The notes under the pieces are model-generated. The model was not told the origin of the DNA, did not search any database, and worked only from the letters and a program-made list of their open reading frames with translations. A stretch of DNA of 64,000 nucleotides from Candidatus Kaiserbacteria bacterium (GTDB taxonomy: Bacteria > Patescibacteriota > Minisyncoccia > Phycocordibacterales > UBA2100): assembly GCA_016217925.1 (NCBI GenBank), contig JACRFK010000003.1, forward strand, positions 143,656 through 207,655. Direction: 5' to 3'. Positions 12,988 to 56,898 of the stretch are shown one piece after another (positions within the stretch are counted from its first letter, which is position 1; the number at the start of each line of letters is the position of its first letter). Position numbers and translations under genes: made by a program.

Positions 12988-15051
12988 TTATTTCTTCTTT
13001 CTGTTTTTCTCCTCCAGCTTCTGTATTTCATCACGAATAAGCGCGGCTGTCTCGAAATCAAGTTTGTCAGCCGCTTCGTGCATCTGATTGCGCTTGTCTT
13101 TTATGAGCTTCCTGATGTCCCCTCCGTATGCAGCTTTATCCATCTCCGCAAGCTCGCTCACCGCGCGCTTGCGGCTTCGCTCGATGTCGCCAACGATGTC
13201 GTGAATGCGTTTCTCTATCGTCTTCGGCGTGATGTGATGTTTTTTGTTGTACGCCTCCTGTATCGCACGCCGCCTGTTGGTCTCGCCTATCGCACGCCCC
13301 AAGGAGCCCGTCATCAGATCGGCGTAAAGAATGACGCGGCCCCTGACGTTCCTCGCCGCGCGACCGATAGTCTGGATGAGCGAAGTGTCACTGCGCAAAA
13401 ATCCCTCTTTATCAGCGTCTAGAATTGCGACCAGTTCGACTTCCGGCAGGTCCAAGCCTTCACGCAACAAGTTCACGCCGACGAGCACGTCGAAGGTTCC
13501 TTTGCGGAAATCGGTAAGGATTTCGATGCGGTCAATAGTTTTCACATCACTGTGCACGTAGCGTGCTTTTATTTTCTTCTCGACGAGGAACTGCGTGAGG
13601 TCTTCCGCCATCTTTTTGGTCAGCACCGTCACCATGGAGCGCGCACCGCTTTTCGTCACCGCTTCGGCTTCTGCAATAAAATCTTTGACCTGCCCTTCAT
13701 AATCCGTGCCACTTACGATGGGGCGGACGACAATTTGCGGATCGACGAGGCCCGTCGGGCGGATCACCTGGGAAATCGGCTCGCCGCTGTGTTCGAGCTC
13801 AAATTTGCCCGGAGTCGCCGAGGTGTAGATGGTTTGTCCTGTGCGCTCCTGAAATTCAGCAAAGTTGAGCGGACGGTTGTCGACGGCACTCGGAAGCCGG
13901 AAACCGTGTTCGACGAGCGTATCCTTGCGCGCCCGATCTCCCGCATACATACCACCGATCTGCGAGACGGTCACGTGCGATTCGTCAATGACGGTGAGGA
14001 AACCTGCCCCGTTAGAGGCGATGCCTCTAACGGGGTCCGGAAATAACTTTGCACAGGCGTGAAAGTAATCAATCAAGGTATACGGCGGCTCCCCGGGCTT
14101 TCGCCTGTCGAAATGACGCGAGTAGTTCTCGATACCGTTGCAAAATCCGAATTCGCGTATCATCCCTATGTCCTGGCGCGTGCGACGTTTGAGACGCTCA
14201 GCTTCAAGGATTTTCCCTTCGCCGTTGAATTTCTTAAGTTGTTCCGCAAGTTCAATTTCAATATCCGCAAGCGCCGCCTCCAACACATCTTTGGGGGTTA
14301 CGTACTGACGTGCGGGAAAAATAAACATTGCATCGTGCTTCGCACCCAGTTTGCGCGTCATCGCGTCCACTTCCTCGATTTTCGCGATTTTTCCGCCCGT
14401 GAGGTCGACGCGGTAGATGACGCGTTCGCTCGCGGGCATGATCTCAACGGTAGCGCCAAGCGCACGAAATGTCCCCGGCGAAAGCTCGCCCGCGGTGCGC
14501 TCGAAATAGATAGAGACGAGTTTGCGCGACAGGTGGCTGCGCGTCATCTGTTCGCCCTTCGTCAGTTTGAGATTTACTTTTTGATATTCGATAGGGCTGC
14601 CTAAACCGTAGATGCAGGAGACGGATGCGACGACGATGACGTCCTTGCGCGTGAGGAGGGCCTGTGTCGCTGCGTGCCGCAGGCGTTCGATGTCTTCATT
14701 TATCATCGCTTCCTTCTCGATATACGTATCAGTAACCGGCATGTACGCTTCCGGCTGGTAGTAATCGTAGTAGGAGACGAAATAATGCACCGCGGCGTCG
14801 GGAAAGAAATCGCGGTACTCGGCGGCGAGCTGCGCCGCGAGTGTTTTGTTGTGCGCGATGACGAGCGTCGGTCTCTGCACTTTTTCAACGACATTGGCAA
14901 TGGTGAAGGTCTTGCCGGAACCTGTAACCCCCAAAAGCGTCTGGTCACGTGTACCCGTTTTCAGACTTTTTACGAGCGCAGAAATAGCCTCCGGCTGATC
15001 GCCGCCAGGCCGATAGTCGCTTTTTAGCTTGAATACGCCGCCTGATTTCAT
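12988..15051 (-). CDS. uvrB: Excinuclease ABC subunit B
   Basis: Helicase motifs (GVTGSGKTFT, DESHVT) and a C-terminal UvrB/UvrC interaction coil. Start is taken as ATG MKSGGVF at 15049-15051. The stop of the upstream uORF overlaps this ATG. Confidence 0.9.
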   Translation of the reverse strand: MKSGGVFKLKSDYRPGGDQPEAISALVKSLKTGTRDQTLLGVTGSGKTFTIANVVEKVQRPTLVIAHNKTLAAQLAAEYRDFFPDAAVHYFVSYYDYYQPEAYMPVTDTYIEKEAMINEDIERLRHAATQALLTRKDVIVVASVSCIYGLGSPIEYQKVNLKLTKGEQMTRSHLSRKLVSIYFERTAGELSPGTFRALGATVEIMPASERVIYRVDLTGGKIAKIEEVDAMTRKLGAKHDAMFIFPARQYVTPKDVLEAALADIEIELAEQLKKFNGEGKILEAERLKRRTRQDIGMIREFGFCNGIENYSRHFDRRKPGEPPYTLIDYFHACAKLFPDPVRGIASNGAGFLTVIDESHVTVSQIGGMYAGDRARKDTLVEHGFRLPSAVDNRPLNFAEFQERTGQTIYTSATPGKFELEHSGEPISQVIRPTGLVDPQIVVRPIVSGTDYEGQVKDFIAEAEAVTKSGARSMVTVLTKKMAEDLTQFLVEKKIKARYVHSDVKTIDRIEILTDFRKGTFDVLVGVNLLREGLDLPEVELVAILDADKEGFLRSDTSLIQTIGRAARNVRGRVILYADLMTGSLGRAIGETNRRRAIQEAYNKKHHITPKTIEKRIHDIVGDIERSRKRAVSELAEMDKAAYGGDIRKLIKDKRNQMHEAADKLDFETAALIRDEIQKLEEKNRKKK
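14007..14035. repeat. Perfect 29-nt palindrome CCCCGTTAGAGGC-GAT-GCCTCTAACGGGG inside the uvrB coding sequence
   Basis: It encodes DPVRGIASNG in frame. It lies within a roughly 17-aa insertion relative to E. coli UvrB (recalled from memory), between the conserved LIDY and VIDESH blocks. Confidence 0.7.
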
Positions 15052-15149
15052 ACACAACAATGAAATGAGTCCCGCCCCGTAGGAAGCTGCGCTTTCCTAC
15101 CGGGGTCGCCGGCGGGCTTGTAGGCCGCCTTCAGTTTGAACTTACTCAT
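15048..15149 (-). CDS. uORF or leader peptide, 33 aa, MSKFKLKAAYKPAGDPGRKAQLPTGRDSFHCCV, coupled to uvrB
   Basis: The N-terminus mimics the UvrB N-terminus FKLKSDYRPGGDQ. The TGA stop overlaps the uvrB ATG as ATGA. It contains the palindrome at 15075-15105. Confidence 0.5.
   Translation of the reverse strand: MSKFKLKAAYKPAGDPGRKAQLPTGRDSFHCCV
15075..15105. repeat. Palindrome CCCCGTAGGAAGC-TGCGC-TTTCCTACCGGGG, a diverged member of the GTTAGAGG family
   Basis: Inverted arms lie within the uvrB leader uORF. Confidence 0.5.
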
Positions 15150-15174
15150 CGGGACACTGTACAGGATTGGGCCC

Positions 15175-15215
15175 ATATAAAAAAGTCGGTCGGCGCCTCG
15201 CACGAGGCGCCGACC
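15175..15215 (-). terminator. Strong intrinsic terminator: 13-bp perfect GC stem followed by TTTTTTAT
   Basis: ggtcggcgcctcg / cgaggcgccgacc. On the minus strand it is followed by gacttttttatatgg. It lies between the tyrS 3' end and the uvrB leader. Confidence 0.55.
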
Positions 15216-15515
15216 AGTGCAAGACGGAACAGCTCTCGAGCGGCTGTCCTTATTGCTGCTGCGCGACGATCCGGGCGCACGGATCACTGCATACCCAGAC
15301 TTCCTTCTTCGACCCGCCTTCGCAGGTCATCGGAACCATCTTTCCCGTTCCAATTTTGAAGCGCCGACAACAGCGCGGCGCTTGGCAATACGAAACGGGT
15401 GTTTTGTCGTCTTCTTTGGTCGCCGACATTCACGGCCTCCTTGGCCATAGTTCGAGGTTGCGTTGGAACAAACAAGAGCATCGCGCAGGTACTGTATACG
15501 CCACATTTCCGTACG

Positions 15516-20875: not shown

Positions 20876-20976
20876 CCCGCTATTTCTATATGAATAAAGG
20901 AGATATGTAAGCAAAGTTCACCGCAGTCCATATTGGTGCAAGCGAGAAGTAATCGTTCTGAAAGGGCGGGACTCAT
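20872..20976 (-). promoter_or_regulatory. Inverted-repeat leader module with 34-aa uORF MSPALSERLLLACTNMDCGELCLHISFIHIEIAG, copy A
   Basis: Arms are catcccgctatttctata at 20873-20890 and gaaagggcgggactcat at 20960-20976. The uORF TGA overlaps the lysS ATG. Copies B and C are at 31864-31959 and 43339-43404. Confidence 0.55.
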
Positions 20977-41513: not shown

Positions 41514-43411
<1,898 letters not shown>

Positions 43412-52341: not shown

Positions 52342-52425
52342 CCCGTTAGAAATCGCGGACGACTCGTAAAACATCCCACTAGGCAGAGCCCAGGGATTCC
52401 GGTTCCGCGTCCTATTTCTAACGGG
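52342..52425. repeat. Palindromic element, GTTAGA family: CCCGTTAGAAATCGCGGA, about 45 nt, TCCGCGTCCTATTTCTAACGGG
   Basis: Roughly 20-nt inverted arms. The right arm ends exactly at the rluB ATG at 52426. It has the same architecture as the element at 1577-1657. Confidence 0.6.
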
Positions 52426-56698: not shown

Positions 56699-56795
56699 AA
56701 AAATAGCAAAACTGTTAAAAGGTTGCTAATGCACTAAGCCTACCCCCGCAGCGTTTCCTGTCCAGCGCCCCCCGTCGCACAAAAATCATTCTAAC

Positions 56796-56821
56796 GTTTT
56801 GCAAAACGTTAGAACGTTGTG
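56796..56821. promoter_or_regulatory. Perfect 26-nt palindrome TTCTAACGTTTTGCAAAACGTTAGAA, a candidate operator
   Basis: Exact dyad symmetry. The half-site contains CGTTAGAA, which recurs in the GTTAGA palindromic family. It lies about 100 nt upstream of the 56698 gene start. Confidence 0.4.
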
Positions 56822-56898
56822 GGGGTACTGGGGGGATTGGGTAGAGATGCCTCAACAGCCAGTGAAGCGTTTGGCGGGCCTGCCTGCGCAGGCAGGGC

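Follow-up and report, generated by a model that had tools for sequence, protein, structure and literature searches.

We analysed a stretch of 64,000 nucleotides (nt) from a Candidatus Kaiserbacteria genome (contig JACRFK010000003.1 of assembly GCA_016217925.1, positions 143,656 to 207,655; hereafter the window) and found that the beginning of its uvrB gene is split by a 107-nt insertion cassette, which separates the first 15 codons of the original gene from the rest and carries a new start codon and N-terminus of its own. The best explanation overall, and one that we consider probable, is that a cassette has entered uvrB and that the gene is now read by a relay of termination and reinitiation. 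Ribosomes would start at the old, leaderless ATG, translate a 15-codon stump and 18 cassette codons, terminate at a UGA overlapping the new AUG, and then reinitiate to make UvrB, the expressed N-terminus of which would read MKSGGVFK.. and not MSKFKLKAAYKPAGDQ... The cassette appears to have been gained repeatedly at the same nucleotide position and to be able to insert again into its own N-terminal copy, while it would probably be lost when the old and new N-terminal repeats recombine with each other.

Anatomy of the interrupted uvrB gene

All features of the locus lie on the minus strand. The uvrB coding sequence as now expressed (12988..15051 in the open reading frame (ORF) list) encodes 687 amino acids (aa), and its product is full-length, with residues 7-681 aligned to positions 2-652 of profile NF003673 at 956 bits and the match beginning at residue 7, the F of VFKLKSDY. 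The NCBI start for P0001, a 100% identical UvrB from Candidatus Kaiserbacteria, falls on the same ATG, and an exact-protein database lookup of the window's UvrB returned no entry. Ahead of the gene, the ORF list contains a 33-codon upstream ORF (uORF), MSKFKLKAAYKPAGDPGRKAQLPTGRDSFHCCV* (15048..15149), which is composed of a stump of uvrB and 18 codons contributed by the hairpin and spacer of the cassette, and which ends in TGA. The stump, MSKFKLKAAYKPAGD (15105..15149), comprises the ancestral first 15 uvrB codons, the last of them GAC (15107-15105), and has the same amino acid sequence as P0002, a UvrB encoded on contig L081.

Between this GAC and the CAG at 14997-14995, the window has 107 bases more than L081, and these constitute the cassette (14998..15104), which is missing from L081, L083, and L137. 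It sits between codon 15 (GAC) and codon 16 (CAG) of the original uvrB frame, at a point within the highly conserved P-x-G-D-Q block of UvrB, which we take to be the helicase Q motif. Its anatomy can be read directly from the DNA as three consecutive parts. The first, H, is a hairpin, CCCGGTAGGAA-AGCGCAGC-TTCCTACGGGG (15075..15104), with 11-nt arms, one mismatch, and an RNA folding energy of -18.3 kcal/mol. The second, S, is an A/U-rich spacer (15052..15074) made of CGGGACTCATTTCAT, 7 variable nt, and a T; it is devoid of a Shine-Dalgarno (SD) motif, and the conserved tail of the uORF, ..DSFHxx(V/I), is read from it. The third, N (14998..15051), is a replacement ATG followed by 17 codons, MKSGGVFKLKSDYRPGGD, which joins the gene again at CAG (Q19), and its length is 18 codons in every cassette. 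As the 107 nt do not divide evenly by three, the old frame is out of register with N and ends at the TGA inside ATGA (15048..15051, in the context gtATGAaa), where the uORF TGA (15050-15048) and the uvrB ATG (15051-15049) overlap by 4 nt.

The closest homologue among 120 close UvrBs, P0002 (91% aa identity), begins MSKFKLKAAYKPAGDQPEAISALV, i.e., with the first 15 residues of the uORF followed by window UvrB residues 19 onward. There, MSKFKLKAAYKPAGD runs straight into QPEAIS, with DNA continuing CAA CCG GAG (QPE), and the contig L081 reads ATG...GGGGAC|CAACCGGAG uninterrupted, without the 107 nt. The spacer between tyrS and uvrB is 85-93% identical between L081 and our sequence when calculated per 100-nt window. 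Hence the uORF is almost certainly the amputated original start of uvrB, extended by cassette sequence.

A first-pass annotation of the window, made from the letters alone, had reported this uORF as a leader peptide, and much of what it described was recovered here. The 33-aa uORF with a UvrB-like N-terminus is present ahead of uvrB (minus strand, 15149-15048), its likeness to the UvrB start is not due to chance since 15/15 residues equal the N-terminus of the insertion-free P0002, and the two N-terminal copies are homologous. A nucleotide alignment of the two copies bore out this likeness at a somewhat lower level than the proposed 65-70%, namely 64% over the 36-nt F..D block. The distance from uORF to uvrB, given as 89 nt, is 98 nt from start to start, and the hairpin, described as having 13-bp arms of the GTTAGA type, is instead located at 15104-15075 with 11-nt arms and one G.G mismatch; the 13-bp version was probably a palindrome found inside uvrB at 14007-14035. 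A TTG at 15060, which the same annotation had raised as a possible true uvrB start, was ruled out, the in-frame TTG not being conserved in other cassettes and the ATG being invariant.

Two possible sources of the second N-terminal copy were also evaluated and rejected. A target-site duplication, in which N would have been copied from the local stump, does not fit the window, where N departs from its own stump at 5 of 12 residues and the stump has stayed as in P0002. A recombinational import of homologous DNA, which would leave a sharp breakpoint at the cassette, was set aside since no clear break shows up in the sliding identity between the window and L081. Separately, the stump and N block of L119 are 89% identical over 36 nt, compared to 50-75% at other loci, which suggests gene conversion between the two repeats at that locus.

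Recurrence and probable repeated gain and loss at a single site

The distribution of the cassette was established from the 120 close UvrB homologues, 117 of which have a readable N-terminus, and from the DNA of 12 filled loci (the window and 11 from other assemblies) and 3 empty ones. The 11 further filled loci represent 10 distinct sequences, that of L104 being the same as L085, and neither route to these loci relied on the uORF frame. Two N-terminal lengths exist among the UvrBs of this clade, the conserved F being preceded by 3 or 6 residues, and the long form is found in 19 of the 117 readable proteins. Presence and absence of the cassette are directly visible in the DNA: stump-H-S-N was found in 8/8 long-form loci read (the window, L082, L084, L085, L086, L136, L138, and L139), and the 3/3 short-form loci read (L081, L083, and L137) are cassette-free. 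A metagenome scan for part of S followed by TATGA retrieved 48 loci, 44 of them chance matches, and added the filled loci L104, L109, L119, and L132. The architecture, which the first-pass annotation had suggested looking for in related genomes, is therefore found in 11 further independent loci, and the cassette is not an assembly artefact. S-like sequence, searched for as a negative control in more distant Patescibacteria and other phyla, was not found there, and a UvrB search of genome contigs gave, among the matches listed, relatives of <=65% identity, each with a single N-terminal motif.

On a neighbour-joining tree of UvrB cores, long-form proteins occupy at least 10 separate places, usually as sisters to short-form ones. 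Pairs with and without the long N-terminus are 98.3-99.8% identical in the 644-aa core (99.8% for P0071/P0084, 99.5% for P0066/P0087), and the empty locus L137 is 97.5% identical to the filled L136 over 600 nt downstream, with identical flanks. L138, from the same tight clade as these two, is filled and displays another hairpin type and another spacer. Each stump resembles the ancestral N-terminus of its own lineage rather than other stumps, as in L082 and L119, the stumps of which are ~64% identical with mostly synonymous differences. For this same pair, S+N is 92.5% identical and the host gene 77.7%, while the opposite discordance is observed between L136 and L138 (cassette 72.5%, host 90.5%).

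Hairpin types are also spread across clades. Type 1 (GGTAGGAA/TTCCTAC) was identified in the window, L082, L109, L119, and L139, along with a variant form in L136; type 2 (GGTACCACAAGNCC..GGNCTTGGCTACG) in L084, L086, L138, and the second cassette of L132; and type 3, a 17-bp stem around ~115 nt, in L085, L104, and L132. L132 is a tandem that reads stump-H(type 3)-S-N-H(type 2)-S-N-gene (L132:3111-3471), relative to which L085 and L104 represent the single-cassette state. Its two S-N copies are identical, which implies that the GAC|CAG boundary of the first N was the entry point of the second cassette. The tandem has two chained stop/start overlaps, linking a 65-codon stump ORF, a 38-codon ORF beginning at the first N, and uvrB.

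Loss of the cassette is suggested at the protein level. P0111 and P0116 (N-terminus MSTFKIKSDYRPAGDQ) are nested among filled relatives on the tree, and their N-terminus reads as a crossover between the stump (MSTFKIESDYKPAGD, MSTFKI..) and N (..FKLKSDYRPAGD, ..KSDYRPAGD) of their clade. Short-form N-termini with the cassette hallmark YRP were also noticed in P0019, P0007, and P0009; judged from their sequences, short-form YRP N-termini look like chimeras produced by deletion between the stump and N repeats. Stumps can also decay, with 15 nt (5 codons) missing from that of L136 and 33 nt (11 codons) from that of L084, and given this decay, stumps that are intact are probably young. Taken together, the distribution, the discordance, the tandem, the losses, and the decay favour repeated gain and loss over one ancient insertion, and the cassette, an insertion/deletion polymorphism, is very probably a unit that has been recurrently gained and lost in Kaiserbacteria. 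We infer true mobility rather than allele exchange. In a separate observation, the metagenome contigs L082 (1-13) and L136 (1-23) reach no further than 13 and 23 nt, respectively, ahead of the stump start, which may reflect assembly breaks caused by coexisting filled and empty alleles.

Putative leaderless start, open frame, and stop/start overlap

A -10-like hexamer, TACAGT (15156..15161), lies exactly 6 nt upstream of the ancestral ATG at 15149. Of the 14 distinct loci read, 12 have TA(C/G)AGT at exactly this distance of 6 nt from the ancestral start codon (ATG or GTG); the spacing is 8 nt in L081, and L109 is without a clear hexamer. In 8 loci the hexamer comes with an extended TGn in front. 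An old start located 6 nt after a conserved -10 box implies a leaderless mRNA, and the uvrB mRNA would thus be leaderless and transcribed from a promoter at TACAGT. This putative promoter is located downstream of a terminator-like hairpin with a T6 run, followed by ACTTTTTTAT (15177..15216), which closes the upstream unit of tyrS and a small Cys-rich ORF. The hairpin (15216-15187) has a 13-bp stem with 10 G-C pairs and a 4-nt loop, which confirms both the terminator-like hairpin of the first-pass annotation and its placement of uvrB in a promoter-proximal unit of its own. Leaderless transcripts encoding leader peptides are known in Deinococcus (PMC4007540).

Such starts may be common in this genome. 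Within the window, SD-like motifs are found at 10.6% of candidate starts vs 10.9% of internal ATG/GTG codons, and TAnnnT is located 5-8 nt upstream of 13 of 53 long ORFs vs 2.4% per internal codon, a pattern suggesting that leaderless or SD-independent initiation is widespread in this Kaiserbacteria genome. A TATAGT- or TATAAT-like -10 box was seen directly before many gene starts, e.g., TATAGTGTCCTG|ATG and TATAATGCGGAC|ATG, with examples at 1535, 16817, 17225, 20917, 31866, 43411, 56526, and 58667. We also noted a recurrent, promoter-like start context, TATAGAAAGAGCGGG|ATG (TATAGAAATAGCGGG|ATG at 20917), at window positions 31867-31953 and 43343-43398. At two sites a long inverted repeat (CCCGCTCTTTCTATAC ... 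GAAAGGGCGGG) bridges the gap to the stop of the preceding gene (TGAATCCCGCCC), and this context is one of its arms; the far arm contains GGGCGGGATTCAT, which is the 13-mer opening the cassette spacer in L082 and L109.

Downstream of this start, the old frame is open through H and S at 13/13 stump/new-start junctions (the junction scan covers most loci, with those of L086 and L136 read by eye). The uORF TGA overlaps the new ATG as AUGA at 12/13 junctions, while in L082 the uORF closes with an earlier TGA, 2 nt short of the ATG; the overlap, pointed out by the first-pass annotation as a translational-coupling geometry, is thus both real and conserved. At least six independent length changes have accumulated among cassettes and stumps, and every one is a multiple of three, for which the chance expectation is ~(1/3)^6, i.e., ~0.0014. 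These include +6 nt between hairpin types 1 and 2 (30 to 36 nt) and ~+96 nt in type 3 (~156 nt), +12 nt in the S of L136 and -6 nt in that of L084, and -15 nt and -33 nt in the stumps of L136 and L084, respectively. The type 3 hairpin form alone adds 32 codons with zero stops. This pattern of sequence change indicates that the uORF frame is maintained by selection. As a side note, the JGI annotation of L085 calls the stump ORF as a 65-aa gene.

A 4-nt overlap is the geometry that has been experimentally tied to termination-reinitiation (PMC10666635, PMC12548453), and none of GGAG, GAGG, or AGGA occurs within 17 nt upstream of the new uvrB ATG. The arrangement here resembles AUGA termination-reinitiation pairs and leaderless leader peptides (PMC10666635, PMC12548453, PMC4007540) in its 4-nt overlap, in a downstream start without an SD motif, and in an upstream ORF that opens at the presumed 5′ end of the mRNA. 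Unlike in known coupled pairs, however, the upstream ORF is the amputated start of the same gene, as opposed to another gene or an evolved sensor, and the whole arrangement is carried on an insertion. Based on these sequence features, it seems likely, if less so than the recurrent gain and loss of the cassette, that UvrB arises by reinitiation once ribosomes have translated the stump ORF of a leaderless mRNA.

The hairpin is conserved as a structure. All hairpin types fold stably (-16 to -21.5 kcal/mol), and in an alignment of 9 short cassettes, 91.5% of cells are paired within H vs 33-52% when partners are slid. Covariation is directly visible, with 5 pairs showing compensatory double changes and 0/500 shuffles reaching the observed covariation score, in what is a small sample of nine cassettes and two sequence types. 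The base of H (CCCG..CGGG) is conserved, its interiors range from 3-nt loops to ~115 nt, and the peptide that it encodes varies freely (GRKAQLPT, GTTSPLGLA, ...), while the tail DSFHxxV/I encoded by S is conserved, including one synonymous CAT to CAC change in L138. Features of an attenuation-type leader such as trpL or ermCL were not found, H having neither a following U-run nor a conserved alternative pairing and its encoded residues varying without constraint. H may act at the DNA level, in insertion or excision, or at the RNA level, by pacing or protecting the relay. In 8 of 10 cassettes, structure prediction has the new AUG base-paired, with partners that vary: S pairs with ATGAAAT in a start-masking hairpin in the window, L082, and L119, other partners are involved elsewhere, and such pairing is not predicted in L084 and L109. 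Masking of the start codon is weakly suggested by these models. Finally, neither the 33-aa uORF nor a 79-aa upstream ORF had an NCBIfam match, these sequences being too short, and an Rfam search of the leader region returned nothing at gathering or E-value thresholds.

Competing explanations and relation to mobile elements

Several observations weigh against this account. With regard to history, the mean identity of S+N between lineages is no higher than that of the host gene, and residues peculiar to the lineage (STH, PDGD) recur in both stump and N of L139 and L086, encoded there by different codons, which fits poorly with a recent insertion. Both the closeness of average S+N identity to host identity and these shared residues would be compatible with a long-standing balanced polymorphism reshuffled by recombination, which is a possible alternative to recurrent gain. 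With regard to translation, the transcription start, the translation of the uORF, and reinitiation are all deduced from sequence, many genes here evidently initiate without an SD motif, and the A/U-rich spacer might recruit ribosomes alone. The ATGA moreover belongs to the conserved cassette sequence (tATGA), so that the overlap could be a passenger and it is frame conservation alone that argues for selection. With regard to mobility, no second copy of H or S was found outside uvrB in ~174 kb of Kaiserbacteria DNA, and no transposase or integrase was identified among 20 unassigned ORFs of the window.

The points on translation lead to an explanation in which the cassette is real and UvrB is translated independently, through ribosome loading on the spacer or an internal promoter, while the stump ORF is an inert relic and the overlap a by-product of tATGA. 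This would be in line with the apparent frequency of SD-independent initiation in this genome, with an A/U-rich spacer set in a G+C-rich context, and with an ATGA that is intrinsic to the cassette. An inert relic, however, does not predict a frame that is kept through at least six insertions or deletions, nor a 32-codon expansion that stays open. A promoter inside S was ruled out on the lack of TAnnnT at the right distance, the hexamers at -12..-7 being TCATTG, TCATAT, and TCACAT, and the predicted pairing of the new AUG weighs, if weakly, in the same direction. We thus regard independent translation as unlikely, and retain reinitiation after the stump ORF as the preferred route to UvrB.

With respect to its origin, the cassette invites comparison with elements that replace the 5′ end of a gene, such as SXT/R391 in prfC. 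The dusA-specific islands likewise enter their target gene at its 5′ end and bring a substitute for that end (PMC4482086). In dusA and prfC islands as in the cassette, the original 5′ end of the target gene persists upstream as a remnant, the incoming DNA contributes 5′ coding sequence with which the protein still works, and insertion takes place at one fixed position in a conserved housekeeping gene. These islands, however, span tens of kilobases and have an integrase gene and a promoter of their own, whereas the cassette measures 107 nt (~200 nt at most with the long hairpin) and is ~400x smaller, protein-free, and without a recombinase, and here the old promoter and start stay in use with the two frames joined by the stop/start overlap. 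Of the hallmarks of a 5′-end-replacing element, the remnant 5′ end and the fused replacement 5′ coding sequence are both present. An integrase gene and cargo, which such an element would have between its attachment (att) sites, are missing, with 53 nt (~150 nt for the long hairpin) separating stump and new ATG in all 12 filled loci, and no integrase was detected in neighbouring gene tables or Pfam scans. For lack of integrase and cargo, the cassette is not a typical integrative island.

It could instead be the collapsed scar of a large uvrB-targeting integrative element, the interior of which was deleted before the scar spread by homologous recombination. The remnant and replacement 5′ ends do match the architecture of dusA islands (PMC4482086), and an inverted repeat like H, with loops of 3 to ~115 nt, could remain between the ends of an element. 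Yet a large element between stump and S-N was seen in 0/12 filled loci, no integrase was found nearby, and three hairpin types are found at an identical junction. The second insertion in L132, with an S-N identical to the resident copy, suggests small-scale events, and a scan of viral contigs recovered no phage or viral contig with S-N and a single chance match, i.e., nothing relevant. Overall, we consider a scar improbable.

The first-pass annotation had proposed an old tandem duplication of the uvrB 5′ end that diverged in place, the upstream copy becoming a regulatory leader that mimics UvrB. Two homologous N-terminal copies 98 nt apart, the conserved stop/start overlap, and the 89% identity of the L119 copies, as local duplication or gene conversion would yield, could all be read in this way. 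However, the polarity is reversed: the upstream copy is ancestral and equals the functional N-terminus of insertion-free relatives, and it is the downstream copy that came on the 107-nt cassette. The duplication is further contradicted by the empty sites, by the differing cassette content of near-identical strains, by a spacer, hairpin base, and N common to lineages whose stumps differ, and by the 5 of 12 residues that set the window N apart from its unchanged stump. A function in peptide mimicry is also unsupported, two stumps having lost 5 and 11 UvrB-like codons, and with them most UvrB-like residues, while the frame was kept, which indicates that the "mimic" residues are dispensable. An origin by in-place duplication is thus very unlikely.

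Least credible of all, and close to negligible, is recoding, in which bypassing from GAC to GAY or RNA excision would skip the 107 nt and still join the original N-terminus: the codons for take-off and landing agree (GGC GAC / GGC GAT), the former has a stable hairpin right behind it, and most stumps are intact, yet N is a complete N-terminus with its own ATG under purifying selection, the stumps of L084 and L136 are truncated, no group I/II intron signature or Rfam match was found, and programmed bypassing of the T4 gene 60 or byp kind, like an intron, is rejected because no stop follows the take-off GAC and the frame of the gap is conserved up to AUGA, which bypassing does not need. A diversity-generating retroelement with a template/variable repeat (TR/VR) pair was considered as well and rejected, since differences between the repeats involve all bases; no reverse transcriptase is found among the neighbouring genes.

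Small palindromic repeats that insert into genes, such as REP/RAYT and miniature inverted-repeat transposable element (MITE)-type elements, offer a second comparison. Like these and the Rickettsia palindromic elements, H is a short, imperfect palindrome, conserved at its base and variable towards its top, and the terminal inverted repeats with variable interior expected of these families are present in its CCCG..CGGG base. Unlike them, H was seen, within ~174 kb of Kaiserbacteria DNA, at the uvrB site only, the cassette (107 nt) is out of frame with the gene, and it carries a 77-nt non-palindromic payload, S+N; we know of no palindromic repeat family with such a payload. Rickettsia palindromic elements are inserted in frame within genes (PMC1166351, PMC1458961), and a further likeness to them is that a related family, CCCCGTTAGAGGC..., is found in the window with one member in frame inside uvrB.

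H and S are each single-copy in the 64-kb window, while the GTTAGAG palindrome family related to H (CCCCGTTAGAGGC..GCCTCTAACGGGG) has 4 other copies there; H is at best a diverged relative of these palindromes. The member inside minus-strand uvrB (14007-14035) is a perfect palindrome with 13-nt arms, CCCCGTTAGAGGC-GAT-GCCTCTAACGGGG, placed in frame and, like H, directly after a GAC codon. It belongs to an insertion of 17 aa (..FHACAKLFPDPVRGIASNGAG) immediately ahead of the FLTVIDESH motif. Among 113 close UvrBs in which the region is readable, this insertion was found only in P0001, P0006, and P0038, scattered on the tree, and it is a second polymorphic palindromic insertion in uvrB. Two other members, at 1578-1656 and 52342-52425, have ends CCCGTTAGAGGC / GCCTCTAACGGG or CCCGTTAGAAAT / ATTTCTAACGGG and 55-60 nt interiors, and a looser one is a 68-nt palindrome at 56768-56835. 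Among these three, one lies between carA and uvrC with TTGAC on both sides, and one inside a 409-codon ORF without a Pfam match.

The neighbourhood of uvrB was read as well. Upstream of it, tyrS (16817-15570) is followed by a small Cys-rich ORF of 59 aa (MSATKEDDKTPVSYCQAPRCCRRFKIGTGKMVPMTCEGGSKKEVWVCSDPCARIVAQQQ, 15250-15429), located between tyrS and the terminator-like hairpin, for which a Pfam scan returned no match. The DNA of this ORF is 92-93% identical to L081, which exceeds that of the flanking genes, and small, possibly homologous genes are called at the matching position in L084, L085, and L086. Downstream, murB directly follows uvrB in the window, and the slot between the two genes differs among relatives, which have a histidine kinase, a methyltransferase, a small ORF, a GIY-YIG protein, or a deaminase at this place (L081:5011-6624; L082:2174-2803; L085:5087-5296; L086:6027-6326; and the place of P0045).

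As to what the cassette is, we tentatively propose, as a possibility that falls short of being likely, a site-specific non-autonomous mobile element of an undescribed kind: a "self-repairing" insertion of ~100 nt at one uvrB PxGDQ codon boundary, which provides a spare start and N-terminus, hijacks the leaderless start of its host through the stop/start overlap, and is mobilised in trans. A candidate mobiliser would be a hairpin-recognising single-strand DNA recombinase acting 3′ of GGNGAC, beside a small target palindrome, CCNGCNGG. A literature search, incomplete in its coverage, found no description of such a cassette. If this account is correct, a very small selfish or neutral insertion can live in an essential and highly conserved part of a repair gene, offsetting its own damage by means of a spare start codon and a built-in translational relay. 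The two forms of Kaiserbacteria UvrB N-termini would then have a structural reason, gene callers would either miss the stump ORF or label it as a hypothetical protein, and the presence or absence of the cassette could serve as a strain-level marker. It would also offer a natural comparative test case of termination-reinitiation from leaderless mRNA, in hosts of the Candidate Phyla Radiation that are not growable alone and apparently have few SD sites.

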